From positions 10,354,001 to 10,418,000 of the forward strand of contig CM022666.1 of the NCBI GenBank assembly GCA_012295275.1: a DNA stretch of 64,000 nucleotides, written 5' to 3'. Below the pieces are notes generated by a model. The model did no database searches, was not told where the DNA came from, and saw only the letters and a program-made list of their open reading frames with translations. This stretch comes from Chrysomallon squamiferum (lineage: Eukaryota; Animalia; Mollusca). Shown in pieces: positions 6,301 through 64,000 of the stretch; position 1 is the stretch's first letter, and every line of letters starts with the position of its first letter. The translations under genes were made by a program, and so were the position numbers.

Positions 6301-9300
6301 ATGATTTTATATGTATGTATGTATATTTGCATGCATGTTTGTGTGTGTTTCAAGAATATAAGTTGAAAGAAACTGATGAATTAACTAAAACTGATTATAC
6401 ATAAATTTTGATATTGAAATGCATAGCTACAGAGGGTAGACGATGGTTGGCTTGCCTGCCATTATTTTGTTGTTGTTGTTGTTAAATTCAGCTTTTCGTG
6501 ATGAAATAAATTATTGATATGGATTTATGAATATTTTAACTCAAGATGTTTGGTGAAATGTAGGTGTAATTTATTTTATATGTTAAAATAAATAAAATTG
6601 TATTTCTTATTGTATTTTGTTTACTGTTACAAAAATTATTTCATAACCAGAAATGTTTCCTTTCAGTGTGCATTGATTTGTTTTACTTTTATAATCTCTG
6701 TGTATTTTCTGTAATAATAATCAAATATAAACTATAATGGTGATTTTATTTTATTTTATTCTTTTTTTAACAGATAATACATTGTTTGTATATTAAGGTT
6801 ATTTTAGGGAAAATTAAGGATCATAAAGGTGACACAAGGATCGTACAATTTAAAATGGATACAGTAATTAACACAAAACAATTTTATACATTTCAAAATA
6901 ATAGTTTTATCTGTTTAAGTTTTTGATTACAACAATCTTACCACAAAATAATATTTACTTTGTCATTTTGATTTTAGAAGAGTAAATTTTATAATCTGTC
7001 TGAAATCAAATATGTATATGTACGTGTATGTCTCTGCATGTTTTAGACAAAGAATATACAATCCTTTATAATAATTAAGTATGCATATATTTATTTTAAT
7101 TTGTCATTATCATTTTATATTGCATTTTAGTGGAATGTTATGCTTGCAAATAAAGCATGTAGACTATTTTTGACCTCATGATAAGGAATAGCTAGTGTTT
7201 ATTTTATAATATCTGATTAGTGTGTTATGTGAGATGTAATGTATTTTTAATTTGTAATTTCAGATTCCGGTCAGTGATGGTGAAGGAAATGATACACATG
7301 GTGTTAAATGAACACTTGTCAGACAAAGAGTACAACCCAGAAGAAACAACAGACTGGACTAAACTAATAGCAGACGACATTAAAACAAAACTGAAAGGTT
7401 AGAGTTCAGCTGAGTAAATATGGATTCAGTACCTGTAATTATTTAGACAAAAAGCCTAAATAACTATATTATGTAACAAACTGTTTGTTTTATTTATCCC
7501 TGGTGACTAAAAAGTTACTGAAGATATGTAAAACTATCATTTTGTCTTTTATCATACTTCATTTCATAAAACACATCTTACCAAAATTTACCAACCTCTT
7601 TCAGAGCAAATCAAATATTGTAAAATATCCTAAGTCTTATCAGGAATTTTTATATTTTTCACTGAGAAATGATATCAAGAAAATAAGAAACTGACAGCCT
7701 CTTCCATGAATTTATTATTTTATAGTAAAATTGTTGTTGTAATAAAAAACTGAAACAGATAAAACTATTATTTTGAAATGTATAAAACTGATTTGTGTAT
7801 ATTACTGTATCCATTTTAAATTGTATTATTGATATTTATGATCCTTTATTTTTCCAAAAATAACCTTAATATACAATAAACAATGAATTATCTATTTAAA
7901 AAATAAACTAATAAATATATTGTACATTCAAACATAAAAAAAAAAATGAAAACTTCAGTTCATAGGCATAGGAAGTTTTGAAATTATGAATATTTAAATT
8001 CATTAAACATGTTATGATCAAATATAAAGAATAACTACAGCTTCATTTATTACATGACATTTTAAAGTGTAAATTGCTTGAATAAAAATATAAAATATTT
8101 TGAAAATATGTTTATTTGATTTCAGATCTAGGTTATGATAGGTACAAGTTTGTTGTGCAAGTGGTTATAGGAGAACAGAGAGGCGAAGGAGTCAAGTAAG
8201 TTTAACTTATATATAACTGTATATATGTTTAAACTTGTTAGTGTAATTATTGAAGGGTAAAATAGCAGCTACCATTTAGTGCTGCAGACATAAGATAATT
8301 GTCACAGTTTATTATTAGAAATTATTGTAAAGACTGATTTACAAAAAATAATAAATAAAAAGGCATGTATATATTAATAAGAAATATATATAAAATAATG
8401 GCTTGGAAGTATACTTTATGCATGTTGTTTAAAAAAATACAGATACCCATTTTTGAACAAGTGTATTGTTTTAATTAATCATGAAGGTGTTGTAAGGAAT
8501 AAACTGATTTTGTTTATCTATCATATATTACCTTTAGTGTTTATTTCTAAAAGTTCATATTATGTATATGTTTAAATTCCTTTTGCATAATGCCAAGTTC
8601 AGTTAACAAATAAAACAGCGACTTAAATTCCACAAAATATCTATTTATCTTTGTATTTAATTAATTTCAGAATGGCTTGCAGATGTTTTTGGGATTCAGA
8701 TACAGATAATTATGCTCAAGATATTTTTATGAATGTAAGTAACTTGATTTACAGTGATACCTAATAAACTACATCCTGTGGTCTTATAGATGGCAGATGA
8801 GAACTCAGCCTTTGAAGGTTTTGTACTAGTTGGGTTTATTTATGTTCTTTTTCCTATTTAACTTCTTCTTTTTTCTTTTGTTTTTTGTCGTTATTTTAGA
8901 AATTTATTTAAAATGTACATATATATATATATTTTTTTTTATCTCGTTTAACATTTCATAAAGTTCATTATCTTTATCTCTATGACAACGCAATACTTAG
9001 TTTTTCTAGAACTTCTTGAAAAATATTTTCCTTAGTATGATGAACTGTAATTATTAGATAGCATAATTCTGTTTTTGTTACAGTAGCAGTCACTAATCTG
9101 TTACTAACCTGTATTTTTATAGATGTTTCAAGAGACATTATTTATACTGATGTGACACATTTGAAATGATTATGATAAGAAACTTAAAAATAATTTGTTT
9201 TAAAATAATATAATAAATGAATAAATTCATGAAACTCCTGATTACACTTTATTTAAAATATCTAGAGATGGTAACTGTATTACTACCTGTTTATATCGAA

Positions 9301-24051: not shown

Positions 24052-24859
24052 TTCCGTGAATAAAAGTTAATGTTTTTATTCAGGAGAAAAGCAGCTTGCA
24101 TTTGAAGAATTTTTAGCCAGTTACGAAGCAGTGAAAAAGGAGAAAGATGTGGGTACCTACAAGGAGTTTGTTGAAGCTATGAAATCTTTCGACCGAGAAG
24201 GGCAGGGCTATATTTCGGCAGCGGAGATGCGACATATGCTTACTGCAATGGGTAAGATAAATCAATGATCACAATCTTTTTCGTGACAGCTGTCGTGAGT
24301 AGATAATCGTGACAAACGTGCTGTAAAAACTGAACTTACGAGAACAGTTTCGCAGGTGAACACTTACTTACTGTCTAATAAGTTGAACTCATTTGTGAAT
24401 CTTGTCCATGTTAGCACTCCCGATTTCTGGCTGAAGCTAAACAAGTGATATAAATCATTATCAATAAATTACTGTCATTACTGGAACCACTACCACTACC
24501 ATCATCACAACAGCGACGACAGTGACCAGTGCCACCGCCTTGTATCAAGTTTCATTAACAAACAGGAATGTATTCTTCCTCTTTCTTTCATTTCATTCTT
24601 TTTTTCTTTTATATGTATACATTTTTTTTTTCTTCTTCTTCTTTTTTTTTCTTCTAACAGTTAAAGAAATCACCGGATATAATAAGACATCTTCGTACTT
24701 CACTAAACTATACCACTGTGTTTGAAGTTAAAATTTTAACTACATGTAATATGTGTTGTTATTGCAGGAGAGAGACTTTCTGATGCCGAGGTTGACGAAA
24801 TTATCAGACTCACTGACACGAGAGAGGACTTAGAGGGAAATGTTAAATATGAAGGTATT

Positions 24860-28897: not shown

Positions 28898-31800
28898 TTA
28901 TTTTTCATCCGGGTATGGACCAGCCAGCACTTTAGATATAAATTCTGAAATGAAAAAAAAAAAAAAAAAAAAAAAAAAAACCGTGAAAAATGTTAATAAA
29001 AACATTGTACATTTTGAATTCAACAGCTTCATGCTACTTTTATATTTTTATTATTGTTTTAATCCGACAATAATTTACTGTTTCAAAGTAAAATGCCTAT
29101 TTGCAGCTAATTATTAAAAAATAGATATTTTTAAAAATATAAAAATATGTAATAGTAAGAAAGATTAAAATTAAATCTTTCACAAAAATACAGCGAAATT
29201 TGAATAGCATTTGCATCTAAAGATATTATTGGTTTTAAAGTCTTTAAACTTTATTTTTAACTTACATTTTTTTTTAAATTTACAGTTATAAAGATATTTA
29301 TAAATAGCTAAAACTACATGTATCCTTATTAGAGAAAACCCAAAACATTTCCGATGCAGACATTTGATTTTAACAAATCTTTGGTTTTGATAATTACAAT
29401 AATTCCAAGTTTTTTGTGTCAAACCTGTAACTTTCTCCTTCATTTTATTAATATTACTGAGTTAAACGATAACTGTGGTAGTAGCAACACTGTTAGTTAT
29501 AATAATGATTGTATTAGAAAGTATGGAGGTGTTACTATGTCAATGTGGTTGCAACAGTAGAAATATGGCGGTAGTAGTAGTGGCTGTTGTTTTAGTAGTA
29601 CACATATGCTTTAGTTCACTGATCTATATTTTATAGTAGCATATCCTGCAATCGCTGTACGTAATGGCAAATATAATTTTCTTTCAGACAAATTTTTATA
29701 GCATTTTGGAACTGAACTACATTTTCTTTCATAAATTATTTCTTCACACACACACACGCGCGCGTAATCAATACGTAGTTAATTTCTCTACAAATCTGTT
29801 ATTATTGAGGATTGCAGGATAAATAATAACTGGTTACTGTCATATGATATCAGCATTATCCTGTTGTGTCGAATGTACTGAGACTGTTCTCACCTTCGCA
29901 GGATAAAGCTGATATTTTAAAACAGTTATTAGTTATTCCCTATTTTATACAAAGACTAAAAATTTAAAATATCAGTTTTACTTAACTACTTAAAATAATA
30001 TTTTTATTACATCGTCAGTTTTCCATAAAGTTATGATTTTAGTCATTTAAATTCTGAATCTGAGATTGTTTTGCTAGTTCAGAATTAAGAAGTGAATAAA
30101 AAATATGTTATTATAAAATGTTAAAATAGAAAAACTAAATCGGAAAAGAAAAACACAACTAAAAAAACAACAACAAACAAAAGAGAAATTAAAGAAATAA
30201 AAATAGCAAATAAACGAGTTATGTGAGGGTGTTTTTAGAACTGTTAAGAAATGGTGATAACTGATTGTTACCGCACCCTTTACTTGTCCCCAAACGGACC
30301 GGCCATGACCTTTGTGATAAATTCTGAAAGTAAGAGTTAGTGTAGAGACGTTGTCTATAAATAAACATAACTTTGTTTAATCATAAAGTAACAGGTGGAA
30401 CCAGACACTGCGTCGTCTCCATACTGATCTGGCGTACATGTTCTTTTCACGACAAAACTTTTTTCATTTATTTATTTATTATTTATTATTGCTATTATTT
30501 TTTTTTAAAGAAAATATTGTACCACCACCACCCCAGTAAATGTATGAGAAAAAAAAAATTAATAATAAAATTAACAAATAGCAATTCTAACTGCAAAAGT
30601 TGATTTGTTTTAAAGTAAAATTTCCATCATATGGCACACATACCTTCGTATTTGACGTTTCCTTCCAAATCTTCTCTCAAGTCAATGCACTTAATGATGT
30701 CATCAACTTGCTCGTCTGAAAGTCGGTCACCTTGAAAAACAATATCAGATATCAGTAATATAGCATACAATATAATGACATATCCACTTGAAACTATCAC
30801 TGTCATTATCATCATCCATACAAAATATCCATATAAGAAAAGCATTACCGATAACTAACAATAGTAAACCATTAAAGGTTGTAATTAACTGTTACTTACC
30901 GAGAGATGTCAACACGTGTCTCATTTCAGCAGACGAGATGAAACCTTGTCCTTCTCTATCAAAAGTCTTGAAAGCTTCCATGAAGTCAGCGTAGGTTCCT
31001 GTGTCTTTCTCTTTCGAAACAGTTTCGTAAATTGGCAGGAATTCCTCAAACTTGTATGACTTTTCGCCGAATTTCTTTACTCCTCCATTCTTCATGATGA
31101 TTTCCTGAGTCGGGTTCAGTCCCAGACAGTATAACATGTCGCCTGTTTTGGCAGCGTCGACATCACCGTCGCGACCATCCCAAAAATCGAAAAGGTCAAA
31201 CACCTCCCTAACATCTGCAGTGAAGTTTATTCAGTTTAATTTTAAAAACCTTCAAGTACGTGAATTGCATTATATCTGATAATCGCCAATATTGAAATAA
31301 CTAGTTTTAAATCATTCGTTTATTCAATGGATTGATTTTAATTTATTTTAATTTTTATATATTTCGGGATTTATTGAATATTTTCCTTAGAAATAAACTG
31401 TGAAATATATTTATAGTCTAGCCCCGTGCATTTTGAATACATGCATTAAATGTTCAGCTACTTCAAAAACAAATAATTAATTTGAATTATTCCCTTTTTC
31501 ACTTTTCTCCCCAAATTTTTATCTGTTTATCATTTTTCTAATTATAGTATCAAATTTACTATCAAATTAAATCTGATTACTAAATAACAATGATTTAAAC
31601 AATAATATACTGCAATGGGAAGGAGAGTATGGGTCCATTTATGGCAGTACGCTGCATGGGTTATATGTATAGACTAACAGCACGCTGGAAGCATCTTAGG
31701 TTTATTACGCCAAAACATTTATTTAGATCTTTGGGTTTGTACTAAATATATGTTATAAACAGTAATTCCTGTGCCCAGTAATTTCTCGGAGTACTAACTA

Positions 31801-37318: not shown

Positions 37319-39997
37319 TCAAAAGTTAGTTTGAAACATGTCAAACAAGAAATTTATGTCTTCTACATCATTTATCCCAGGTAGCTCTGAACACTTTTTT
37401 AAGTGCAATCCATGTATCTTATCATATTTGATGAAATAACCTAAAATAAAAAAATAAACCAAAATTTCACACAGAAATGAACTATGACATCTTGAAATAT
37501 AAATTCAAACAAAATATTCCCAACAACTTTGATTTTGAAGAATCTTAAAACTGAATTCATTTTCTCTAGGCAAACTGCTATTTTCTGTTAAAAATTACAC
37601 TATTTATTTCAACTTTTTTCATGCATTTTGGATATTTTGTGGACCCTATAATTCTAAATTAATATACATTAGTGCATACATACATACATTGTCTGTTTCC
37701 AGACTGTTGAAATAATTACCTGAAAGCAGAAATGATTCTAAACACACATAATTGTCAACTGGATGAATGTGAAAGTGTCGTAAATCTGGCTTGTTTATCC
37801 TTGTATGTTCCTACAGAAAATAATATTTAAGTGTTATGTATTATTGCTTACATGTATGTGCATTTATACATGAATTATAATTTTTTTATATAATGATGAT
37901 AATTTGTATATATCTTTCAGTAAATACCTAAAATAAGATAAATACTTAAAATACCTATAAGATAAAATTAACATTAGCATTTATTCACAAACATTTAGCT
38001 CTGAGGCCTTGTCAGTTCTGCCCTTTAGAAGACAGGTTATATGAAATAGAAAACTGCCTCTCTTTCTACTTTTGCCCTGCCCTTTTTCAGTGAAAAACAC
38101 TATATATATATATATAGATATATCAATCCTTTAATGTTAAAAAGATCACATATGATATAAACAAATACATATGAATTAACTAACTTATAAAAGTGTGAAG
38201 TTATAAGAAAATAAACACATACATCTGAGAAATATAATTTGCCATTCAAGTTTGCAGTCAGGTATGTCCCAGATAGATGGTCTTGAAGGCAACAAATGAA
38301 AACATTTTTCAGGTTTTTAGTAGACAAAGCCCTGAAGCTGTAACACATGAATAAAACTGTAAAAGAAAAAAATGCAATATGATTTCTGATATCTAAGACA
38401 GAACCACAACATAAATTGTTATAATGCTACAATACTTCAGTTTTTATGCTTTTGTTTTTGAGTATTTTTTATCTTTATATTTCTATACATAACATATCTG
38501 ATAATTTCAATGCTTGTATTTTATTAGTAGAAAGAAACAATTTCGATTCATACAGAGATATGTGAAGAAAAAAATAAAGAAAACAAAATGACTTAACAGA
38601 TAGAAAAGTACTGGTCACTATGCTCTCAGTTAATCAAAATCTTTAAAAAATAAGACTGCATTATAAAAATTAAATATCAGCCTCTGTGCATCCTTACAAG
38701 CGTGTTAATTCAGTTTCATATTTTAGTATTTGAAAATATTGCCAAAAGAAATATATATTAAATATAATTCAGCTAAATATACAATATGTTTTTTGCCTAT
38801 TCATTTGTAACACAATAAGCATATTTTAATAATCAACAATTACCTTTGTCATTTTTGCAATAAAATGGAAGACAAAACACATTTTGAAGAATTAAAAAAT
38901 TACAGTATACCACATAGACAGGGGAGAGTTTGTGAAAATGTAATATAACATACACACATGTATGATCTATGTAACATAGCTACACAGACACTCAACTATA
39001 CACTATTACATTGTATTGTTACTATTATGAAAGCATCTCACATTTCTCCTTTATTGAAAAGTCCAGTTCGTCTTCCATAATAGCCAGCTGCATGTCAGAT
39101 TTTGTCAAAAAACACCCTGACATGGCTGCATGTCGAATAAAAACATTCTTTTCACCGATAAGCTGGATATCAGCTAACTTGTCTTTCTTCTTTTGTTTGA
39201 TGAATTCAGCACAAATACTGAATGTTGTGACTGAGGGGAAAAAAAGGAAAATATATCTAACAATATACTGAAATCTCTTTTAACTTAAGGACCTTGTAAA
39301 TAATTAGTTCAATTGACTTTATTATGTGTTTTTCATGAATTTATTGTTATCATTTCTTGAAATTAATGTGACTGTTATTAAATCTCAACTATATACTTTG
39401 TCTATAATGAGGAAATCTGCTTATGAATTAGCAGCAGTTATACAAACCTTTTCAGCAAGCACACAGTCTTTGTGTGTTACCAGCAAGCTGCAGATCACTT
39501 TTCTATTATAATAAAATTCAGATCTAGAAATTTCACAGCATTCAATTTTGAGAAATAAATTGATTATGATTGATAAAGAATGCAAAATGAAATGTTTAAT
39601 TTAATATGTTAATTATGTATAATTACACTGGCATATACAGATAAATAAAAAGGGAACCTGCAGTGGCCATCAAACAGGTTTCTTTTATATAATATTTCAT
39701 ATATGTATGCTCCGTGTTGAAAAGCCATTTATCACAAACACTGGTAAATGTATCCTGGGAAAAAACCTGTAACAATCCTATGATATACCTCTGTTTGCAT
39801 TTACTTAGTTAATTCACTTCTGCAATCATAATTTTTTTTCTGAATGGAATTAGATATAAACTATGTTTAAACTATGTTTAGCTGCATAAATGTTATAATT
39901 AATCTTTCTCTGCTGTACTCATCAATTCCTGATGAAGGGAGATAATCACATTTCTCAAAATTTTAGAAATAAACTTACAAATTCTAGGATTCTCCAT
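37319..39997 (-). CDS. Leaderless beta-trefoil protein, putative interleukin-1-family-like cytokine, 184 aa
   Basis: Exons (-): 39997-39979 (part of exon 40059-39979), 39230-39042, 38356-38223, 37810-37720, 37440-37319; all GT-AG with pyrimidine-rich acceptors, 555 nt, open throughout. Protein MENPRIFTTFSICAEFIKQKKKDKLADIQLIGEKNVFIRHAAMSGCFLTKSDMQLAIMEDELDFSIKEKFLFMCYSFRALSTKNLKNVFICCLQDHLSGTYLTANLNGKLYFSDEHTRINKPDLRHFHIHPVDNYVCLESFLLSGYFIKYDKIHGLHLKKCSELPGINDVEDINFLFDMFQTNF*. It has a three-fold repeat (SGCFL/SGTYL/SGYFI). The gene structure is well supported; the start codon and the family assignment are inferred. Confidence 0.75.
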
Positions 39998-42900
39998 CTG
40001 TATTTGTCTTATTACTGTTTGCAACAAGCCAAAACCATTGGTTACAATTTTGTCTTTGCCTGAAATATAATAAACAAATACATTTTTAAAAATAACATTA
40101 AAATTTCAAATAGTTTCAAGCTTCTTTACATTTTGTAATTTCTTATTAAATAAAATAGCTGTAATGTCACAAAGACATCATGAAAAATGAAAGTTGTTTC
40201 TTAATACAACTAATAAAACACATGTTTAACAATTGATTATTTTCTCTAAACAAAATAACACATTAAAATAGCTTTAAAAAAACCTCACCATTTCTAAAAA
40301 ATTTAAATACATTTTTATCTACCTGCTTCAAGAATGACACGAGTTTCTATTACTCTATAAACCTATACTGAGGTTATTTAAAAAATCTAAACAGCTACTT
40401 CAGCTTAGTCATTGCTAAAACTTTATGTTTGAAATAACAAAGCCAATGCCTGTAAGAATCACATTCGATTGTAGTTTTAAATTAAGTAATATATAATGTG
40501 GAACAAAGCAATTTTGTTTAATGTTGTCACCTTCATTAGAATGGTTGTCAGATTGTTTCAAAACAGTAGCACTTTGTTAGGAAAAAATTATTACATATTT
40601 TCAAAAATATCAATATGGAAGTTTAATGGAGTAAATGTTTTTACATTCTTTTTAATATTAAATTACGTAATCATTATATTATTAAAAATATGAATATGCA
40701 TTTCTATAAAAATAATTACTGTTTTCAATTGAACCATATTAGATCATTTATAATCAAATTAGAATTACACTAACTAAACATATTTATAGTGTTTTCTTTG
40801 TTTAATGTCAGTAATAATTCAGTAACAGTGGTGATCTAGATTGACATAAATACATCATTTTACCGTATAGTCAACAATTAGCAATTTATTTACTTGTAAT
40901 TACTGGGTGACCCTGTTGCTTATTTTTGTGGGATACATTATTTAAATTATTATTGCTGTAAAAAAAAAATATTATTAATAATAATAAATAAAACAAATTT
41001 TAATAAATTATATTGTTTTAAAAATAACTTTAACATACTTTCTTTACTTCAATCTTTTTATATCATTTTAATCTGTGCCAATAAGGAATAATTACAAAAT
41101 AAATAATAAAATAATAATACAGAATTTTGTTATATTCGACGTTCCAAATACTGAACTGATGAAATTATCAATTATTGGTAGAATTTACAGTCTGAAATCA
41201 TTTCAGAAGTAGGTGGCTTACCGCTCAAATAGACACGTGTCACAAATGCTCTTTTTAAATGTTTTAAATTCGATAATATGCTTACTCGCTTATGTCTATA
41301 CCTACTATATAATTACCTGGACTACATCGATATAGTAATTACATCATTTATCACAATTAACACAATGACTGAATGAGTTGTGTTGTGTTTCCCCCTACAT
41401 CATGTCTAAAAATACCAGCTTTGTTTGCCCTACTTTTTATGCGAGTCAGTGGCAAACTGCATCCCACGGGGCTTTCTGAATGGCACGCCTAATAGCATAG
41501 GGTAACTTGACTCTTTTTTAAATGAGGCAAAAACTGATGTTTTTGAAGTCAGTTATGTCTTTCCGCAACGAAGTCGGTAGAATTCAAACGGTAACCGTAG
41601 ACATAAAGTAAAAACGAATTCATTCAGTAAACTCTAAAATGGTTTAACTACACACCAGCACGTATACACAAACACCACAAAGAAATTAGCAAAACACGCT
41701 TATTAACTTAGTAAACTTTTATTTTTCGTAAATGTTTACTGTCAAATAATAATAATAATAATAATTAAAAAAAAAAAAAAAAAAATTAAAAATATATAAC
41801 GTTTTCTTAAATGTTAAGAGGAGGGCAGTTATCCAGTTTCCTATTTCCGTACTCCTAATCTTTGGTCAGTTTCTTCAAATCTGAAATGACAGTAAGGCTT
41901 ACGTAAGAGTATGATAATCAGCATCCGCTTTTTATATCCTTAAAGCAACCATCACTGTTTAAAGTATGTCGTATTTCTCGGGAAACTAAATCTATTCAGA
42001 AACGTTTTAGAGAGTAGTAGATCGAGCTGAAATAAAAGCGATGTTACATTACTGTACTTGAAAATAGAACGTATTGTTTGTTTCTTTTTCTTCTTATGTT
42101 GTTGTTATTGTTTAATAGTTGTAATTATATTTTGTTTTATTTTGTTTCGTTTATTTATTTACTTATTTATTTTCTGTTTATTATTATTATGTTTTAAACC
42201 TTCACAAATCCTGAAATTGTTCATAAATATTTATTATTTTCTTAGATATTTGGGAAAACAGCACTTTTATTAGCTCTTCACATTTGATCAAAATAAGGTA
42301 TAGCTTCATTATTGTTATGTCGTGGAAAAGGTGATTTCTAAGCTGTTGATTACCAACAACAACAAAACAATAAAATAACATTCATTGGTGTAGTTTTAAT
42401 ACATCTTTCTAATACCATATAGGCAGGACTGGTAGGTGTAGGTGAGATATAGTCAGTATTTTCCATTCCAACCACTGTCCATGACTAATTTATCAAAAGC
42501 TGTGAAATAACATTAATAAATGATGTGTACTTTAACAGTTGAAATAAATTGGTTATTCTTTGAAGCTAATCAGTCTGAGCTTGGGCTATACAAAAATTAG
42601 ATTAGTACAAAATAATCAGTGCAACTTAACATTTGTCTGAAATGCTTCAGAAGCATCAAAAACTTTAATATTAATAGGTGTTTTGGGGAGAGGTTTTTTT
42701 GTTTATTGTTTATTTATGTATCATTAGGAAACAATAAATTTACCAAGTCATTGCTGATTAAAATAGAGAAAAAAGAAATATTTCACATAAATTATTTATT
42801 ATTTCTCATGCAGTAAATTTTTCATTAGTGAGCCTTCAGTGGATACGATAATACAACACTTTATCCAACAATAAATAAATAAACAAACAGACAAATAATA

Positions 42901-43750
42901 ATAATTATACTGTGCCAAATAAGGTTAGCAATTACGTACAAGGTGTGAAATACAGACAACCTGAATGGATGTTCAGTTTATTTGTACACATTATTTCATT
43001 GATACAACATTTCTGAATGTAACCGGCAGTAACACGTTGTCACGGTGTCAACGTCGTTACTTGAATGTCAACTGATGAAATGGAGGTGTACATCACCCAA
43101 GATGGTGAGAGAGGCTCAATAATGTGTGTGTGTATCAGCGGCATTGATAATACCATCGTCGTCTCATGCTTCTAATGAGAGTATTAATATCAGTAACTGC
43201 TTTCTATTCCCAGTTCGGAACAATTTAAAGGTCATGGACATTAAGGATATGAATATGGTTTTCGTGTACCATACGGCCCAGTAGGTCCACTGTATGCTCA
43301 ACTGAGGAAAAGTCAGGGGACTTTCAACACTTGGATGTGGTTCTGCTCAAGAAGATTAGCCTAATGGTAAATGATCTAGCGTTGTCATATTGAAACAGAA
43401 CGTCAGGTTGCTGCTGCAGGAATGGAATAACCATTGGTGTAATACTCTCGTCGCAGTAACGTTGATCAGTCATGTTTCCGTGAATGAAAACGAGATCCGT
43501 TTTACCGTCACCATGAATGCCGGCCCAGGCCATAACGCTGCCACCGCCGTATCGGTCATCATATCGTTCTCCCCGTCGCCTCCATACATGACATGACGCC
43601 TACGATCTTCAAACTGAACATACGGCTTAGTCCCATATGGTAGAAAGGCTAAATGTGGTTCAGTGGTCTTATTGACATGCTTGGTTTTACCTCAGTCATT
43701 ATAATGAACTGCTCCAGATTATTTGGAAAGCGATTATTATTGTATAAATA

Positions 43751-44418
43751 CAGTAATATCTCGCTTAACGATATCACGCTTTAACAATCTTTCTTCTTTA
43801 CAAATTATATAAATAGAAATTTAATTTAATAGTTAATTGCTCGAAATAAATGATACAAATGTATACAATGCATGTTTTTTAAGTCCGTTTTCTTTAATTT
43901 TTCGTTCATTCACGAGCTTCTCTCAGCTGTGTTGATCAGTTGACACGTCATACGTGCACCTGATATTCTGATTCTCTTTTGTTTTCTGCTTCGATTTAGA
44001 CTTAAACTCGTTTGTAATTTATTCTTCCAATATCTCAAAACGAATAACAGTAAACCGGCAAATGCTCATGATAAAAGAAACGGAAGACAATAACTTTAAA
44101 AACAAAATACATTATCTTAAATGAAACCAAACCCACAATGAGTGGCATATAATTATTTCTTAATGTATTTGTATACATTGATTTGTAAATGATTTACTGT
44201 TTACTTAATATCTACAATCTATTAAATCATTTATGTCTAAACTGCCGTTTTATTTCTCCATATTTTACCTCTTTTTTTTTTATGTCAGATCTCATCAGCG
44301 AGAAAGTAACTACTGCTTTTAACCTTAATTCTATGTAAATTAGTCTCCCGCTTAACGATACCTCACTTCACTATTGGAAATTTGGAACCAATTACATCTT
44401 TAATCTGAGGTATTATTG
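43751..44418. mobile_element. Tigger/pogo-like MITE nested in the 43624-45467 element
   Basis: TA-flanked. Left end CAGTAATATCTCGCTTAACGAT; the right end reverse-complements to CAATAATACCTCAGATTAAAGAT. An internal copy of CGCTTAACGATA lies at about 44349. Confidence 0.65.
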
Positions 44419-45024
44419 TAGTATGTATGCAAATATGACATAAATATCGCATAAAGTATGCAAACATAACAAATATCGAAATAATCTATGTATCGAATGT
44501 AGTGACTATAAATAATTAAAAAAGAAGGTATTCATCTAAAAGTATTCCCAATGATTTGGTCCTTCGTATAAACTTTTTCAGTCATAGCCAAAGTATTTGT
44601 AGGTCATAATATCTTTAGTGTACATACTATTAATATACTATGTCACATATATTGTATGATATGTGCGCAATCCGAATATGTATGTGTGCATAACGTAAAT
44701 ATGATCAGTAACAGATGTTTAAGTTGAATATGGTTGAATTCGAACAGTTAATGATAGATGTAACGTTCACATATTCTATTTACTGAATATAAGTAAATTA
44801 CTCGTATGTAAAATATGTTAGTTATTTATAATATTTTTGTCGTTTTCTTTTACAGAAGCAAGCCATAAGCATTAATAAAAACACATCGTGCCGCTTTTTA
44901 CTTTTCTTTTCTTTATTTATTATTTTTTTTAATAGATAGATGAAATTGATGTAAAATTGTTTATTATTGGTCGCTTGTTTTGTAACGGAAAGGAAATGTT
45001 TATGAATTAGAAATGACCACCTTA

Positions 45025-45073
<49 letters not shown>

Positions 45074-45111
45074 GTAACAGTAATTATAATAAGAAGAATA
45101 AGAAGAATAAC

Positions 45112-45151
<40 letters not shown>

Positions 45152-45230
45152 GTAATAATATTATAATAATAATAATGTTGATGATGATAATTATGATGAT
45201 GATAATGAGAAGGAGGAAGATGATGAAATA
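45025..45230. repeat. Compound (AAT)n/(GAT)n trinucleotide repeat
   Basis: Read directly; it produces the spurious poly-Asn ORF 45013-45231. Confidence 0.92.
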
Positions 45231-46323
45231 ATGAAAAAGTAACAAATCAACAACAAATGACCAGTGAACGCTTATTCTGCTTTCGGTTGATGTTACATAA
45301 TCGATTTAGGAACAATGTGCTCCGCCTCTGAATGTTAGAAAGAAACCAAGATGTATGTACAGGCCAAGTTCATTATATACAGAGGTAATCAGGTATTGCG
45401 GTAAACCAGCTTTTTCTACGAAATGGGAATTATACGAACTGGGAATTCTACCAAATGGGAAGACACCGAACATACACCTGAATTCGTCTGTGAATAATGT
45501 CTGATTCCATTGTCTGCGTCGCCAGTGTTGGTGTATTCTGGCCAATCTCAGACGTTCCTAAATGTGACGCGCTGTCCGTGAAACAGCTACAACAGGGCGA
45601 CATGCCTGTAATCCAGCAGCATGGAAACAGTTACGGACAGTTTGAGCATGAATTTCAGAGGTTTCCTGCAAAGTACGGGCTAAACGTGGAGCACTTTCGA
45701 ACCTGTGACGTGCACTAAATACCTATCTTCCCTTGCAGTAGTTAATGGTGGTCGACCAGAAAGGTGTCGATCTCGCACTTGCCCAGTTTGGTGTACGCAT
45801 TGCCGAGTCGTGATATGGTACTGTCATGAACACTAAAATACTGAGCGACGTCGTGTACGCTTAACGCCGGCCCGTTGCTTCAAGACGTTGATTTTCCGTT
45901 AAGCCATGACGGCGACCCGTTATAAACAGGATAAATTCTAACTTTTGTTTTTGAAAATGTGATTGCAATAGACCCGTATTGCACGCGCTTCTGCGACAGT
46001 ACGAGCGCACCGCGTTGCGCGTGCAGTACGGATAGCGGCGTGCGATATGACAAATGGTGTTCTTTTAATTACCCAAAGCGACATAACATACGCAAATAAC
46101 ATACTACCAAGCTTTATCATTTTATTTTAATTTATCTGGAAGTAAAAGTCAGTTACAAAAACTTGCTAAACTTTTTTGGTTTAGTATAATTTATTATGCT
46201 AATGATGTTTTTTCTCTCTCTTCCCAAGTTTACTCATACATCTAGATACAATTATTAAGAGACATAAGGTAATACTCACAAAATGCAACTTAATCTAAGT
46301 ACAAGAAAAAAAAAAAAAAAAAA

Positions 46324-46363
<40 letters not shown>

Positions 46364-46858
46364 CCTAATAAAATAAAATACATTTTATTTATATAATCAT
46401 ATAACATCTGTTGAAAAGCTAGCAATATGTTTAGAAAATATAAAATTGTTCCACTAATCTTGTATACAATTAATAGTATGTTACAAGTTTTACTAAATGA
46501 ACTGCAAACCTATTAGCCATGGAATACGTACATAAATAGTTGAGTAATACTATGAAAAGTTTAAATAATACATTTTTTTCTTACTCTGAAAAGTAGTCAA
46601 ATAATGTATATTGTTTTTATACATTTCACAAAAAATGTACATCTGAATACTTTATAAAAAAAAATCTGATACTGCCACATTAAAATGTTTATTTTTTAAA
46701 CACTATTTCTTACAATGGAATTAACTGATGAAATTAAAATTTCAACTTAAAGCATCATGAGAGAGAGAGAAAAATTAAGTTATTAACATTATTTAATGAA
46801 ATTTAAAAAACAAATATTGTTCACAATTATTGTTAGTTTTAAGTAGCAAATCAATATA

Positions 46859-47522
46859 CAGTGGTACCTTGACTTACGAGTTTAATTCGTACCGTGACTA
46901 AACTTGTATCTCAATATACTCGTATATCAAATCAATTTTCCAAATTGAAAATAACTGAAATACCATTAATTCGTTCCAGCCTCCTAAAAACCACCACAAG
47001 TTTTTATAACGTATTTTAAATAAGAAAAATGTATATATAAATGAAAAATATTGTATAAAAACAAAAATAAAAGAGAATGTAAAGAAATAAATTGATTTTG
47101 TAAAATGTATAGAGTTATGGTTTCTCTCTCTTTTTATGGACAGAGGTCCACAGCTTATTTTAACGCCTTTAGGTGGAGTTGTAGACTTTATCGACACCTT
47201 CGGCTTCATTATGGTACATATCGCAAAAGTACTACGCTCGTACTGCCTAGCCATGTTGACTATATCATAGTATGTGCACACCTCGCTCATGTTTTTCTAT
47301 GATTTCATGCTGTAATTCAGTGAACATCATCCGCTTCTTCTCAGCACTCACTTTCTTGGGATCCATGGAAATTTGGCAAAATACTGCACAACACAACAGA
47401 GATGCTTCCACTGCGAGATAACCACGTGAACCAAACGAGTGAGACGCGGGATGCTGACCGGGCGGTTGTTCGTAACTCGAAAAGCTCGTAAGTTGGAATA
47501 ATCTTAACTCGAGATACCACTG
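46859..47522 (-). mobile_element. Tigger/pogo-type non-autonomous DNA transposon (internally deleted)
   Basis: TA-flanked TIRs CAGTGGTACCTTGACTTACGA / reverse complement CAGTGGTATCTCGAGTTAAGA. Frameshifted transposase N-terminus on the minus strand from 47366: MDPKKVSAEKKRMMFTELQHEIIEKHERGV... then MARQYERSTFAICTIMKPKVSIK. Confidence 0.9.
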
Positions 47523-49060
47523 TATATATAATAAAGTTTTTATAAAATATTTTATACTGTTGACACGTAACAATACTAACATCATGTATCAACTCGACTT
47601 TTTTTAAACGAATCGATTTGAAATAGCCTGGGTACAGTTAAAAGATTAAACCATTAATATATTATATTAAAGCATTTTGAATTTACTAAATGTATAAAAA
47701 CATTTAGATAACGAACATTCCTTTCATTAAAAGTCCCAATTTTTGCCTAATTATTTCTTAGCCGAACCTATGTAATGATTTAAAGGTTAAAGGTCACGTG
47801 AATTACATTTTTAAAATACTATGCGGAAAACGATTTAGTGAATCTTCTAAAAATAAACAAGCCTGTCATCACTGCCAAACACAGCGAACAGGTAAAAATC
47901 ATAGCCTTTCTAAGCGTCTTTTTAACATATCTTAAGGTTTAACAGTAACAGGTATCCTACGCAAGGTGTAGACTAGTGTTCACAGGTTTGTATTCGTATA
48001 AATCTTAATAACATATTCACAGTATTAATGGCATGGAACTGTCTTCAGCTAGTTCCGTCATGATTTAGAATATTGTGTTAATGTTTATAAATAATTATTA
48101 TTTTGGTGGTTTATAGCTTAGAGGTCGTAATATGAAATGCAACGTTCCATCCCACCATGCTGGCTCAGTGGCTGTATAAACAACCGGAAATAACCTTAGG
48201 CAAATGATATGTCGTCTGTTATTAATATCATTTCAGTCAATTATTTCAGATATTATTATTATTATTATTATTTATAATCCCATGAATGGAAAACGTTTGT
48301 AAAATAAAAAAAAATATAATGTCACCAGAAAAATAAAAAATATATAATTTTTATTTCCAGCTTACTAATGGCAAATGATAGTGAATTAATTAAGCATTAT
48401 TTATCACATACATTTTATGAAATACTGTAATCAAATTGATTATACCATTGACATAACTATTATTTTCTCTCATTCTCAGATCATGTTAGTCATGGTACTG
48501 AAAATGTTCAGTGAGATTTATACTGATAAAAAAGAAAAACTTTTAAAATACCAAAGAACTTATTTTCTGGCGTTGACTTTTCTAGCATATGAAACATTTT
48601 TGTAATTCACAATATTTTTACAAAAGTACAAAATACCTTTCATGTGTGTTTTAAAATAGGACAACATGTACCAAAATCTTTGATATATCATTTGCAGATA
48701 TTTGAGACACTGTGGTTAGTGGGAATTTATTAATTTTGTTATTTTATACATACATATTTAATTTATATTATTTTTGTTTTGTTTGCAGTACATATGCAAA
48801 TTTTATTAGGCTAATTGTGTTCATTATTAAAAAAAACATACAAAAAATAACTTATACTAATTAGGTATCAACATCATAGAGACAAGTGGTGACAGATGAC
48901 AGTGATAAATCAGTGAAAAATGTAATAATAAACAGTGACAAAAAATTATGGCAAATGGATATGGAAGATTATGACAGGTCACAAAACTTAATATTAGTGA
49001 CAAGGTAGTGTAAATGGTGACACAAGATAACTGACAAGTGGTGGCACAAAATAATGCTTG

Positions 49061-55939: not shown

Positions 55940-58900
55940 CACTGAAGATTACGTAACGTATGTGTTGTTTTCAGGGTGAACTTATTGGTGTATGTGGCAT
56001 GAGAGGCAGTGGAAAGACTTCTCTGCTCCTTGCATTACTAGGGAGGGTAAGTTACTCAACAGTATTCTGTTTTCCTTTATTGTTACATTCAGATACTACC
56101 AGTGTTGATATACCTTTATGTCTTTGCTGATATTATGTTGTCAGAATTAGAAAATACTGAAAGTTGTCAACGTATAAAGAAAATTGGTTTTCATGTGTTT
56201 ACATAAAACCATTGGAAATATATTAATCAAATTCAGGTGAAAAAAAGAACAAAACAATCAGGCTGAACACAATGGATAACAATGAAAAACAATGGATTTA
56301 TTTATCAACAATGAAAAATGAATGTTAAAAGATTTAGTTTTTTTATATTACCACTTTTTTTTAAAATTATTATTCTGTTTTAATATATCTTTAAATTTTG
56401 CTTTATTACAATAATTAAAGTTTTGCCAGAGAATTTTAAAAAAAATGTTTTTGTTTTATTTGACAGATGAAGTTTCTATCAGGTAAATATGCAGTCAAAG
56501 GCCGAGTTGCCTATGTCAGTCAGGAACCCTGGATAATCAATGGCACAGCACGAGAAAATATTTTATTTGGTAAAGTGAAAGTTGAAGAAAAGTGAGTAAT
56601 ATGATTGACCACATTTCTCTTGAACAGCATCTTGTTTTGAAAAACACAAAAAAGAAAATATGTTAAAATTTGTTCAAAGTTGTGGATGTGTTTTTTGTCT
56701 AAAGATGTTTAGATATTTTAATACTTTCATTGTCTGGATAAATATTTGATTATCTCATTAATGTTTTAAAAGTTTTAATTTATAAAAACAGTACTGTTGG
56801 TTCGTTTTTTTATTGTTATTTTATTGTTATATTTTTAAAACTGTAGATACAAGAGAGTTATTGAAGCATGTTGTTTGGATAAAGACTTTGACACTTTTGG
56901 AGCAGGTGATTGTGTTGAAGTGAGTTCTTTATTTAGTAAAATATTTATACATAGAATAGTTGTGTGAATCTGTGCAAGTTAAACACCAGTAGTATCAAGT
57001 ATTAATTTGTCTTTAGTCATTGACCCTTGTTCACTGCAGTAATTCGTAAGTTTTATACATCATAGGTATTAACAGTTCTAATTATTGGATTTTATAAGAC
57101 TAATTGGGAATAAATGTTAAGATTTGAATGATTAAATGGGAAATAAAATAATGTAGTAGTCATTCAAAATTTTAAATATAAATGAATGAAGGAAAATGTT
57201 TTTTCAAAGCTTTAAAATAATATGATTTAGATTGGTGAAAGGGGACTGAACATCAGTGGAGGTCAGAAACAGCGTATCAGTCTGGCACGTGCACTGTACA
57301 GTGACAGTGACGTGTATCTCCTGGATGATCCTTTGTCATCACTCGACATTCAGATTGGACGTCATGTATTTACCCACGGAATTAAGAGATTACTGAAAGG
57401 AAAGACTATTCTGTTTGTTACACACCATCTTGAAGTAAGTGAAATATGTGAATATAAAAAGGTTAGTCTATAGTATCTCTGATCTGGATGCAATATTATA
57501 ATGTAAAAAAGTTAATGGTTTTGCATGTTTTGTTAAGTGAATGAATATACTTAAGCAAATATTTCTACTGTTTACATTTCACAACTAACCACTGGTTTCT
57601 CTGCAAACAATGAATGCACAATTTTAGTATGAAGTTATGAGAAACATGATTTAGAATTTATAAATTTACAGATTTTTACTGATTCACAATTCCACATATT
57701 TTATATCAAAGGTTTTGGAATGTCCTTTCTGAGGGAATTAAAAAACTATTTATGAAATGCTTTTTCAGTATTTGAGTAGGTGTAGTCGGGTGATTCTGAT
57801 GCAGTCTGGGAAGATTGTAGAGATGGGAAGTCACCCTGAATTGTTGGAGGCTGATCACGACTATGCAGATCTCATGGAGCTTTATTATAGCAAGTATGAA
57901 CAGATACAGAAAGAGAGAATGAAGGCAAATAGTCTAACTGGACAAGGTATGTAATAAGACTCAATAAATACTCATCAGTTAAAAACTGACATTAGTTCAA
58001 TAAGAGTATGAAGTGTCTACCATTGCTTAAAACTTACTAAAATAGATACTGTTTTTATATTTGTTTAATCAGATTTAAGTGAACAAAGTATATCCACATT
58101 CAATAAATATATAAATTTTATTAGCAACATCTGTACACATTCTAAGTATCAGCTGTTAATTATATATTATCTCATTTTGCAAAAAGAAATATCAGTTTTA
58201 TAGACCAGATGACAATTTGTAAAGCATTTTTCAAAGTATCAAGTCATAGTTTTTTTGTTATTTTAGAATAGTGATGCTTATTTTACTTACATGTTTTTTC
58301 TTCCTTGCTATCAGAATTACTGCAATAATTCATTTGCTTGATGAATAAGACAAATATTTCTGAGCGATTGTTTAAATATTATTTTGTTTGTTATTCCCAC
58401 CTTTAACATATGTCCAGAAATTGGTTTTATACAATATTTCTGAGCGATTGTTTAAATATTATTTTGTTTGTTATTCCCATATGTCCAGAAATTGGTTTTA
58501 TACAATAAAGATGTTGTATCAGTTATAATATGTTGTTTTTGTTGTGTAAGATCGAACCACGCCACAGAGGGGCTTTTCCCGACTGTCTCGAAAAGTGCTC
58601 AGTCGTCAGCTGAGCCGTATGACTACTATGGAAGGACTACAACATCAGTACAGCATCATTTCCACCAGCAGCACAGTGTTTGGGGATTATGACTACGGTA
58701 TCTGAATATTACTGATTAATAATATTAAACAGATACAAATTAATACATTTCTAAAGCCAATTGTTTGAGGTTTTTTAATTTTTAAGTTTAGATAAAATAT
58801 CTGAAAATAATGAGGTTTTTTTTTAAAAAAAGAAGAATTTTATAATTACTATATAAGGATTTAGCATCTTATTTTATCTGCAGATATCCTCTACCCAATA

Positions 58901-61900
58901 AAAATAATAATGGCAACAACAATAAAATTATTAAAACTAATGATAATGTTAGGATTAAATAATATTACTAATATTAATAAAAATAAATTTTTCAAAAGAA
59001 AAACATTTATCAATGATAAAAATGTATATCAAACAAAATTCAAGTGATATAACAGAAATGTTGAAAGCAGAGTATAAATTATATTATATAGTTGATATTG
59101 ATGATGTGGTGGCTGGACAGGAAGATGACAGTTTTCACATCACTTGTGAAGCTTACAAAACATACATAGCCAGTGCTGGTGGATACTGCTTTGTCGCTCT
59201 CATTTTCATCTCATTTGCTCTCAGCATTGGCATTCAGACAAGCACCAGCTGCTGGTTGGCATATTGGCTTCATCAGGGTGATGGGGTAGGTGCATGTAAA
59301 TATATTCTTATATTTGTTGATTTGTTATTTCTGGTTTAAATATTAACACATATGATTATTCATGTTTGTTTTTAATTGAGATAAATGATTCTTTCTTTCT
59401 CTACAATAATGTATTTGTTAGTTTTTTGTTGACATGTAAGTATTAAAGCAAGTAAGTGTCTAACAATATATTCAATAATAGGTAAAAAAAAAGTTTAGTT
59501 TATTAATCACAGTATTATTATACCTTTTTATTTTGTTCTGTTATTTTTTATTTATTTATATTTGTGATAATTATGTATATATTATTTTTTGCTTCAGAAT
59601 TCAGAATCTTCCATCAAAAACAAAACTAGTGACACTGGCAGTGTTGCCAACAATCCTGATGTCCACTTGTATGCACTTGTCTACAGTCTGCTCATCATCT
59701 CCATGCTTATAATTGTGGCTATTCGAGGCCTTGTTTTTATGAAGGTGACAGATTTATTGTACTTTCAAAAACATTCATTACAATTAAAAATATCTGAACA
59801 AGATATAAATGTTTAGAATTAGTATACAAATTTGTATTTGCATACTAATATAACTGTGTGCTTTCAAGTTGCTTATTTTTCATGATTACTGATCTTTGTA
59901 ATAAAATAATAACTTAGTGATGTCATTTTGAATATACAAATCTAAAACTATCATTTGTTGACACAGAATTGGGTTTTTTTCATTCCAGTTTTAGTAAAGG
60001 TTAGTCATCAGAACAAATAAAACAATAATTTGAAATATTTTAATTTTTGATATTCATGCATTTTAAATCTGATTTTTATCACTGCGTTTCACTTATTATG
60101 GGATGAAACTGAAGTAATTAGATTTAAAAAATAAAATAAAATACAAGCATAAAATAGTGTTTTATTTTAAATGTTTTCTTTTTTTCTTTTTTCAGATATT
60201 ACTTCGAGCTGCTACACAATTACACAAAAAACTTCTTCAACGAACTCTCTATAGCCCAATGAAATTTTTTGATAAAACACCACTGGGAAAAATTATCAAC
60301 CGCTTTGCTGCAGATATGGATGAAGGTAAATTTTTACAAAATTGGAGTAACTATCAAATAAGTTTTGCTAGAAAATTATCATATTATTTCCCTGTTTTTT
60401 TGTGTTTTTTTAATGTTTCTAGCTTATTGGTTTCTAATTATGTCTTCTTACTTTTCCATCTGTTTATTTACTGTTAAAACTAACACTGTTGTTTTTTTAT
60501 ATTAAAATATAACTTGTTATATGACACATTTAAAATGGCATCTACATTTATTATTAAGAATTGAAATTCACATACACATGCACACACAGTAGTAAATGCT
60601 TAATAATGATAATATTAACAAAAAACAACAAAAACAAACAAAAAAGTCACATCAGTATTTTCCGTAAATTAAAGGAAATAATTTGGAATAATTGAAAGTG
60701 AATTTAAGATTAAAATAATTCTTTTATGTCCTTCTAAACAAAGGTTCAACAGCATACTAAGATTGTTTGCATCAGGAAATAATTTTGTTCATATGATTAA
60801 CCCAGTTTGTTCCATTTAATTTTGTTCTTTTTCTTAAACAATTTTTCAGTTGATGTTCGTTTACCATCCAATCTTGAGTTGTACCTTCAGTATGTTTTCC
60901 TTCTGTTGTTTTCCCTCATTATGATTTGTATCTTGTTCCCATGGGACCTCCTGGCTGTTGTGCCACTTTCTGTTGTGTTTTTTATACTGGCTTGCATGTT
61001 TACACCTATCTTACAACGGCTCAAGTTTATAGACAATCTCACACGATCACCATACCTCGGCCATCTGGCTGCTTCAGTGGAAGGCATTTCTACTATTGAT
61101 GTTTATGGGCAGTCTCAGAGTTTTTTTAAACAGTAAGGCTAATTAAGCATCGTCAACTCTTCTAGGTGTTTTTTGTTATGAAATAATAAGAAATGAATGA
61201 TAATGGACAAACACATTGACATGTGTTTTCTAACTTTAGAAAGGATCTGATAATGGTTCTGTTGCTATTAGCTGATAAAAGAAACCCTCCGAATAATGGA
61301 AGTGAGTTTCCTTTCTGATATTCATTCAAGAAACTGTTAATATGAAAATATATTTTGTCCATTAAATATCCTTTCAATAATTATGCATATGTTAAACAGA
61401 CATTTTCTGATATATGTATTTCAAAATTTTATAAACTTAAAAATAAACAAAATAATACCAGAATAACTTTATGAATAAATATTATTAATTGTGGAATGGT
61501 TATTTCAGATTCTGTGAAATGTTGGATATGAACACTGTTCCATTCTTCCTGTTTTATGCAGCAAATCGGTGGATTGCTCTTTTCCTTGATCTTATGACAA
61601 TTATTGTGATAGGTGCAACTGGGTTCATTGTGGTTTTCACAGTAACCCCAGACAACTCTGCAGAGGCTGGCTTGGCATTATCATTTGCTTTTCAGGTATA
61701 AACTGTTGCTGGCACTAATCAGATATAAAACCATGTTTATTATTTTTTCTTACAATGTAATCTAAATAAATAGTTGTGACAGAGTTAATGAAGGTTAATA
61801 TGTTTATACTGTTTCCATAATTCTGTATTCTTTGTATGATTATGTCAATGCAATTTATTCATTGTATGTATACATGTGACTTATTAGTACAGTATATGTA

Positions 61901-63827
61901 CCTTTTCATTTTATGAATTTGTGTACATGTAAATACAACATGTAATTTTCTGTACATCTGTATGTTTGTCAGTATGACTGAAGATAAGACTTTGTATGTT
62001 ATAGATAACCATATTACTGCAGTACACACTAAGATTTTCTGTTGAGACAAGTGCTCGATTTTCTTCTGTTCAGCGAATAACAGACTACATTGAGGTATGT
62101 AAGAATTAATGAATTTTTAATACATTTGCTGGCAAAATGAAATGAAAAAGTCACTGGTAATAATATGTAACAAAGAGTTGTTTTATCTCTGTAGACCTGG
62201 CTATGGCTTGACGTGTCTCACGATCAATCCTCCATTGGTGTCACAACCATTGCCATGAAAGATAACACTAAGTGTTTCATCTATGTGAAGGCAGATATAA
62301 AAGATCACTTGCTGCTTGTTGTGGTAAGAGAAGCACATGGTTTTCATGATATATATAAAATAATAATTGTTGGTAAGATTGGTAACATGAATATTTTTTC
62401 AGAACTTACAGATTGAAGGTAATCCTGCAGGAGAAGCAACTCCTGTACCAGCAAGCTGGCCCAATGAAGGATACATCACATTTTCTAAATACAGGATGCG
62501 TTATGGTGATGGACTGCCACTTGTTCTGAAGGGAGTCACACTGAATATTCAGCCAAAGCAAAAAATTGGAATTGTTGGGCAATCTGGTTCAGGTAAGATA
62601 CTAATTACAGACTGTAGATCCACTTCGAACAATTCAAATTCATTAAAATCACTTTTTGAAATAGACTGAACAGTGAAAACAATCAGTATATATAATAAAT
62701 AAACAGATATCACTAACTCTAGATCAACCTGAAAGAATTCAAATTTATCAAAGTCATATAGCATTTAATTAGACTGATCCTTGTATATTGAATAAACCAG
62801 CTGAATTTTTGAGATGTTAGTAATAAAATAAAGTTACTGCACTTTGTGATAGTTTAATTTTATTTAAATACTGATTGTTCTGTTAGGAAAATCATCTCTT
62901 GGTGTTGCTCTTTTTCGACTGGCTGAGGCTGCTTCAGGTGCTATAACAATTGATGGACGAAATATTCGTGATGTGAAGTTGACTGACCTTCGTTCTAAGT
63001 TAACAATTCTTGTACAAGACCCAGTATTGTTTGTAGGCACAGTTAGGTAAGATTTCTAGAGGTAGTTAACAGTTCTGTATTTGTTGTAAATTATGGTTGT
63101 TTATTTAAATATTTACTATTTTGTTAAAATATGGCTTTGTGTTATCACTGGTTTGCAAAATTAGTTCTATTTTATTTTACAGACAACAATTTAATGTATT
63201 ATTTTGATGAAATATAACATGAAATATAACTTGTTACATCTGTTTTAGATATAACCTGGACCCTCTGGGATTGTGTCATTCTGACGATACAATCTGGCAA
63301 GCTTTGGAAAAGTGTCACATAAAGGAAAAGGTCAAACATACTTATTGGTTTAATAATGATGATAGTAACTTTAAATAAGTTTTTAATAAAAAGATAAAAA
63401 TGTAATGGAGAATATTAAATTTCATTTTTCTTAATACTATTGTTCACTTAAGCGCATATATGCATGTTCAGTTTTTTTTATTTTTATAATAAATATGTAA
63501 GTAACAGGTATCAGCTATAAAAGGGTAAAGCACAGGATATTGCAATATTACAGAATTCATGTAAATGTATGTAAACAGATATGTCATGTGTCAATTCTTT
63601 ATGAAAAAATTATTTTTGTTGTTTTACATAATTTTTATAATGGTCATTTTATGTAAATTGTAATATTTTTTTATTATAGTTATCTCTGGATTATATATTT
63701 GTTTTTGCTGCAGGTTGCAAGCTTAGAGAACAAACTGGATACTTTGGTAGAAGAAAACGGACGTAATTTTTCCACAGGAGAGAAACAGTTACTTTGTTTA
63801 GCAAGAGCTTTATTACGTCACACAAAG
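49061..63827 (+). CDS. ABCC5: ABC transporter subfamily C, ABCC5/MRP5-like (short MRP without TMD0); 3' end lies beyond the window
   Basis: 28 in-phase coding exons: 49061-49140, 49579-49749, 49836-49983, 50323-50470, 51677-51762, 52137-52310, 52700-52762, 53211-53295, 53680-53828, 54311-54418, 54706-54817, 55417-55604, 55975-56046, 56467-56591, 56847-56919, 57231-57434, 57769-57946, 58551-58697, 59092-59285, 59598-59744, 60196-60325, 60850-61132, 61509-61695, 62005-62094, 62403-62592, 62887-63046, 63249-63330, 63714-63827. NBD1: Walker A GMRGSGKT, signature [16 protein letters not shown], Walker B YLLDD. NBD2: GQSGSGKS, FSTGEKQ. ABCC5-like segments include [21 protein letters not shown] and [12 protein letters not shown]. 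Exact orthology within the ABCC5/11/12 clade is not established. Confidence 0.88.
54080..54158. repeat. (TAC)n/(TAT)n microsatellite
   Basis: Read directly from the sequence. Confidence 0.92.
58353..58506. repeat. Recent intronic tandem duplication (80-bp unit; second copy has a 9-bp deletion)
   Basis: aatatttctgagcgattgtttaaatattattttgtttgttattccca...tatgtccagaaattggttttatac starts at both 58353 and 58433. Confidence 0.92.
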
Positions 63828-64000
63828 GTATCATTTGAAATAAATTGCAAACTTGTACTGTTTTGTATCTGCTACAAAACTTTTTTTTTATTTGGAACAA
63901 TACTTGATTCACGACAGTTTCAATGGTTAGCGAAGCATTTTAACAATTTCTTCTCATTCATGTAAAAACAAAGGTTTCCATACAAAATGAAATAACAAAT

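Follow-up and report, generated by a model that had tools for sequence, protein, structure and literature searches.

A candidate IL-1anc-type beta-trefoil gene with the intron phases of IL-1 genes in Chrysomallon squamiferum

IL-1anc genes and the Chrysomallon locus

Members of the IL-1anc family, described in 2025 and 2026, occur across Eumetazoa, and most of them combine an N-terminal PDZ domain with a C-terminal IL-1 trefoil of 12 strands, recognized through structure prediction and structure search, in which F/LES is often conserved in strand 9 (PMC13736523; preprint PMC12338702). In their genes, two introns are reported to cut the center of the trefoil, with phases that are conserved and at a similar place relative to L/FES, with the trefoil spread over three to five exons (PMC13736523), and in IL-1beta genes the last three introns have the phases 1, 1, and 0, with all 12 strands lying within the last three exons (PMC4880838). 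A conserved gene structure of IL-1 as a general rule was already in print before the gene reported here. That gene is located on the minus strand (39997-37318) of a 64,000-nucleotide stretch of contig CM022666.1 (assembly GCA_012295275.1) from the mollusc Chrysomallon squamiferum, hereafter called the window; it is unannotated, and the order and phases of its introns are as in IL-1 genes. We estimate a probability of about 0.6 that it is a five-exon gene whose last four exons would specify a compact IL-1anc-type beta-trefoil and whose product probably lacks a PDZ domain. It is probably a further member of this family, with the usual phasing and one extra intron.

The five exons are joined via four introns of phases 1, 1, 0, and 1, all of which begin with GT and end with AG; every intron coordinate and phase given in the first-pass annotation is present in the sequence and agrees to the base. 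The coding part of exon 1 (39997-39979, 19 nt) starts with the ATG at 39997 and encodes MENPRI and the first base of codon 7. Upstream, its frame is open to 40105 without a further in-frame ATG, and the exon may start at 40059, with an AG (40061-40060) just ahead of it. Intron 1 (39978-39231, 748 nt, GTAAGT..CAG, phase 1) lies upstream of the predicted trefoil and splits a codon into T at 39979 and TC at 39230-39229. Exon 2 (39230-39042, 189 nt) holds predicted strands 1 to 3 and a 28-residue N-terminal stretch that includes both Asp 23 and Asp 27. Intron 2 (39041-38357, 685 nt, GTGAGA..CAG, phase 1) cuts the codon of F70 in KEK-F-LFMCY, the first residue of an F-x-F motif in predicted strand 4, and exon 3 (38356-38223, 134 nt) would cover strands 4 to 7.

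Intron 3 (38222-37811, 412 nt, GTATGT..TAG) falls between D114 and E115, at the junction of LYFSD and EHTR. Because an in-frame TAG immediately before 37810 bars any upstream extension in this frame, exon 4 starts at 37810, and the phase of the intron is hence 0. Exon 4 (37810-37720, 91 nt) encodes predicted strands 8 and 9 and contains both PDLRHF (37789-37772) and LES (37741-37733). Intron 4 (37719-37441, 279 nt, GTAATT..TAG, phase 1) lies in the codon of G145 (LLS-G-YF), in the turn after LES, and exon 5 (37440-37318, 123 nt) consists of 120 coding nt, for predicted strands 10 to 12, and a TGA at 37320-37318. Joined in this way, the exons form an unbroken frame of 184 codons from the ATG to the TGA. 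Pyrimidine-rich tracts lie ahead of all four acceptors, and the G+C content is 0.29 to 0.37 in the exons versus 0.24 to 0.28 in the introns. The junctions derive from sequence logic only. No paralogue of the spliced protein was found within the window by tblastn.

Intron phases and motifs

Introns 1 to 3 follow the 1, 1, 0 order of vertebrate IL-1 genes, and a fourth intron of phase 1 comes after them. The phase-1 intron within the predicted trefoil lies 68 residues before LES and the phase-0 intron lies 23 residues before it, which makes LES residues 24 to 26 of the exon following the phase-0 intron, and the predicted trefoil is spread over four exons. This arrangement agrees with that described for IL-1anc genes, as judged from the text and a legend of PMC13736523 and not from the positions in its figure. 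The first-pass annotation had claimed that the intron pattern is IL-1-like and that it supports IL-1 rather than FGF ancestry. The phases 1, 1, and 0 indeed correspond to those printed for IL-1beta genes (PMC4880838), but the choice of IL-1 over FGF does not follow, since the 1/0 pair is common to FGF genes as well.

The same annotation had itself cautioned that FGF genes share this pair, with a middle exon of 104 nt, and FGF5 bears this out: its coding exon 1 is 364 nt and its exon 2 is 104 nt, so the introns have phases 1 and 0 (PMC2754481). Two internal core introns are ancestral in chordate Fgf genes and are kept in amphioxus, and Fgf11-14 also have introns flanking the core (preprint 10.1101/2024.08.30.610304); FGF introns are not discussed in the available parts of the IL-1anc paper (PMC13736523). 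Because the 1/0 pair is common to both groups, phases alone fail to separate IL-1 from FGF.

These gene structures, along with the lack of a match to the Pfam IL1 profile, would fit a real gene encoding a trefoil of another lineage, either FGF-like or an independent family, in which the 1/0 pair would stem from kinship with FGF or from a deeper shared trefoil ancestor, not from IL-1 descent. We consider this quite improbable. FGF domains are usually easy to detect, and none of the five exon peptides matched the Pfam FGF profile (PF00167) at E values up to 10; this and the searches described below were run with single-exon peptides and not with the whole spliced protein. At 134 nt, the middle exon exceeds the 104 nt of FGF5, and counterparts of the L/FES, PD-x-R-x-F, and F-x-F motifs are present in published IL-1anc proteins. 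For IL1B, a middle exon of 131 nt would be nearly equal in length to the one here. The 30-nt gap between 134 and 104 nt and the presence of one upstream intron are the alignment-independent discriminators, and they are weak; the alignment-dependent motifs, together with the lack of a per-exon FGF profile match, favor a predicted IL-1 over an FGF identity.

The motifs were compared with those of the nine lophotrochozoan IL-1anc proteins in Table S2 of PMC13736523 (two from Lingula, three from Pecten, two from Crassostrea, and two from Mytilus). All nine contain [FL]ES-x4-[GNDS]-x-[YL], seven contain [PAT]D-x-[RK]-x-[FL] 11 to 21 residues upstream of the L/FES element, and F-x-F is found further upstream in six. 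The protein described here contains EKFLFMCYSF, then KPDLRHF, and, after 10 residues, LESFLLSGYFI, and the order of F-x-F, PD-x-R-x-F, and LES-x4-G is thus the same as in the lophotrochozoan proteins, with similar spacing. LES occupies residues 138 to 140 and is followed by x4-G, as in the F/LES element of IL-1anc; the residue after the turn is F, versus Y or L in the nine. By eye, the C-terminal end encoded by exon 5 is similar to those of MtroIL-1.1 and PmaxIL-1.1. Elsewhere, “F-F” and “FES-PG-WF” have been named as conserved IL-1 motifs (PMC12108812), to which F-x-F and LES..SG-YF would correspond here. A joint pattern in which F is allowed after the turn occurred in 0 of 20,000 shuffles of the protein and once in the window translated in six frames (127,996 residues); this single match, recorded as a count without its position, is taken to be the gene at 39997-37318.

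Within the protein, an x-S-G-x-[FY]-[LI]-[TK] element occurs three times (residues 43, 97, and 143) in a three-way gapless comparison, and the three-way repeat score was reached by 2, 6, 22, and 2 of 300 shuffles with windows of 8, 10, 12, and 14 residues, respectively. This lends modest support to a putative three-fold repeat of 46 to 54 residues, as in a beta-trefoil. The outcome of a crude strand-propensity scan is consistent with a protein of mainly beta structure. Open frames of 60 to 110 codons are common in the window, which has 34 open reading frames (ORFs) of at least 85 residues, and such frames and splice-like sites in AT-rich DNA could happen to join. However, this would require four consecutive segments on the same strand to have compatible phases and raised G+C by accident, along with a three-fold repeat and a family-specific motif set that the shuffled proteins did not reproduce, and we regard chance as an extremely improbable explanation.

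Sequence searches, transcripts, and surroundings

Several results weigh against the assignment to IL-1anc. Pairwise self-alignment of the protein is not significant, with its score reached by 39 of 200 shuffles, and the trefoil identity and strand assignments proposed for the 184-residue product, including the placement of introns relative to strands, come from the motifs and the internal repeat and not from a fold prediction. The Table S2 proteins were compared visually, with no alignment statistics, and the joint pattern was relaxed to admit F once the protein had been seen; the strict nine-protein pattern does not match the spliced form and matches only the read-through of unspliced intron 4. 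None of the five exon peptides matched Pfam IL1 (PF00340) at E values up to 10, and four of them gave 2, 1, 0, and 0 matches among PDB sequences at E values up to 10, none of which was a trefoil. Exon 2 had 0 relatives at E values up to 0.001 among 1.84 billion representatives (HMMER), and a word-indexed search for longer proteins returned no relative of exon 2 or 3. In the ESM Atlas, the top score for these two exons (0.87) was to an unrelated bacterial family, with nothing usable otherwise. Conventional sequence searches also fail for invertebrate IL-1anc proteins (PMC13736523).

The PDZ domain is a further point of this kind. It is present in all nine lophotrochozoan IL-1anc proteins, whereas the minus strand between 39900 and 54500, searched here as 129 ORFs of 28 residues or more at E values up to 1, gave 0 matches in a search that split exons could escape; 5' exons could also be located beyond the transposon remnants described below. 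With a general pattern of the PDZ type, one match was obtained, at an unrelated site near 41317. KDKIVTNG in exon 1 was considered as a sign of a PDZ domain and was discarded, the pattern having been written to fit it.

Two RNA libraries carrying the same organism label cover small parts of the stretch. Each gave one contig (39141-39374 and 37266-37524) with a depth of about 3, which runs unspliced and colinear with the genome through the acceptor of intron 1 or intron 4, respectively; these two libraries yielded no spliced contig. The unspliced contigs may derive from pre-mRNA, from introns that were retained, or from carried-over DNA. Run X5, which is of DNA type and comes from a different study, has the same organism label and closely matches the stretch except for one cluster of differences at 37806-37811, a 5-to-7-base replacement that removes the AG at the end of intron 3 along with two codons at the start of exon 4. 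Either some individuals have a broken copy, or the phase-0 junction is not constrained in every individual or is mis-modelled. This run also carries 23 inserted bases behind 38911, within intron 2.

A decaying or silent copy, or a model that is wrong at one or more junctions, would account for the unspliced contigs and for the lost acceptor in X5, and the transcript implied by these phases would then not be produced in that form. The lack of any annotated or assembled relative in the protein searches and the L/FES-type match that is also obtained from the intron 4 read-through point in the same direction. We nevertheless regard this as unlikely: the 184-codon frame is intact over four junctions in DNA of about 28% G+C, in which stops are frequent; each of the four acceptors is preceded by a pyrimidine-rich tract; exon 5 resembles, by eye, the ends of two published family members; and RNA contigs of such low depth may be pre-mRNA or DNA carry-over. 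The five-exon IL-1anc-type gene remains the reading that we prefer.

Read in the frame of exons 4 and 5, intron 4 contains five stop codons. When it is retained (37646-37810, minus strand), the frame continues for 24 codons and then reaches a stop. An origin of this intron by duplication was considered, given the similarity of its two ends, and rejected, as its donor and acceptor flanks score 11, versus 7 to 12 for mismatched intron pairs, and 168 of 2,000 random 50-mers reach this score of 11; longer comparisons gave shuffle-level results.

Transposon remnants are found at 43300-47600. They include a decayed minus-strand transposon of the Tc1/mariner type (43327-46126), with an ORF at 43327-43599 that is transposase-like by eye and a match to HTH_Tnp_Tc3_2 at 45561-45722 (E = 2.2e-6, under the curated cut-off). 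This remnant is broken by an (AAT)n array at 45025-45176. A 107-residue minus-strand ORF (47268-47588) has no Pfam match, and its end resembles, by eye, the DNA-binding region at the N terminus of a transposase of the pogo/Tigger type.

No neighbor like IL-1R, TRAF3, GCC2, or ESD was present among 119 ORFs of 58 residues or more, and Rfam and tRNA scans of the surroundings found nothing. The window also contains a large minus-strand exon of a myosin essential light chain (30895-31230), whose closest solved chains are from squid (mantle LC-1, 3i5f_C, 164 bits) and scallop (148 bits) in the PDB, which offered no gastropod chain; this is in keeping with a mollusc host. Plus-strand features are a Tctex-1 dynein light chain exon (7217-7399, E = 6.5e-8), an EF-hand exon (24071-24265, E = 8.9e-7), and exons of an ABC transporter (57231-63962) with ABC_membrane and ABC_tran matches in five ORFs, of the ABCC/MRP type by eye.

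Proposed role and comparison with known systems

If the product is an IL-1-type trefoil, then the phase-1 intron before predicted strand 4 and the phase-0 intron after strand 7 would be the IL-1 superfamily's pair of conserved central introns, retained from its ancestor, and the additional phase-1 intron, after LES, would be specific to the lineage. The product is without a recognized signal peptide and could be a leaderless cytosolic pro-cytokine of the IL-1 type, perhaps trimmed at Asp 23 or Asp 27, before the first predicted strand. Such trimming would have a parallel in one sea urchin IL-1anc, for which caspase cleavage directed at Asp has been shown. The protein might be released upon cell damage and then bind to an Ig-TIR receptor. 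A bolder proposal, that the gene represents a minimal PDZ-less IL-1-type form of 184 residues unseen by searches and that the 1/0 pair marks one ancestral gene of IL-1 and FGF, is possible but doubtful.

In the available parts of PMC13736523, Table S1 has only bivalves among the molluscs, with no cephalopod or gastropod genome, and the word “cephalopod” is absent; no report of a cephalopod IL-1 was found among the literature matches listed. Confirmation of the trefoil would mean that the IL-1anc family reaches a mollusc lineage outside the bivalves and would add a PDZ-less, very compact form to those of Lophotrochozoa. It would also provide one more independent gene that keeps both central intron phases, which would strengthen the argument for a single origin of IL-1. 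Because FGF genes have the same phase pair, the phase argument supports an ancient trefoil cytokine better than it supports “IL-1 and not FGF.” Genes of this kind are missed by annotation and by sequence search, and finding them requires gene structure, short motifs, and folding.

The nearest members of the IL-1anc family listed are the bivalve and brachiopod proteins from Pecten, Crassostrea, Mytilus, and Lingula. The Chrysomallon gene shares with them L/FES, PD-x-R-x-F, and F-x-F, the two central introns of conserved phase, and, with the bivalves, a mollusc host; beyond the PDZ domain, it differs in that its product is much shorter, at 184 residues, is undetectable by sequence search, and has F after the turn. 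In lacking a recognizable PDZ domain and in being of about equal length, it is similar to the crustacean proteins PclaIL-1.2, PclaIL-1.3, and PvanIL-1.2, although those belong to another phylum and, by eye, are without L/FES at the corresponding place. Like vertebrate IL1B, whose trefoil strands are in the last three exons (PMC4880838), it has the phases 1, 1, and 0, but it differs from IL1B by an additional phase-1 intron shortly after LES and by the lack of both a long pro-domain, as modelled, and a match to Pfam IL1. With FGF genes it shares a phase-1 intron followed by a phase-0 intron inside the trefoil core, and it differs from them in the length of the middle exon (134 nt versus 104 nt) and in the lack of an FGF profile match in any exon.

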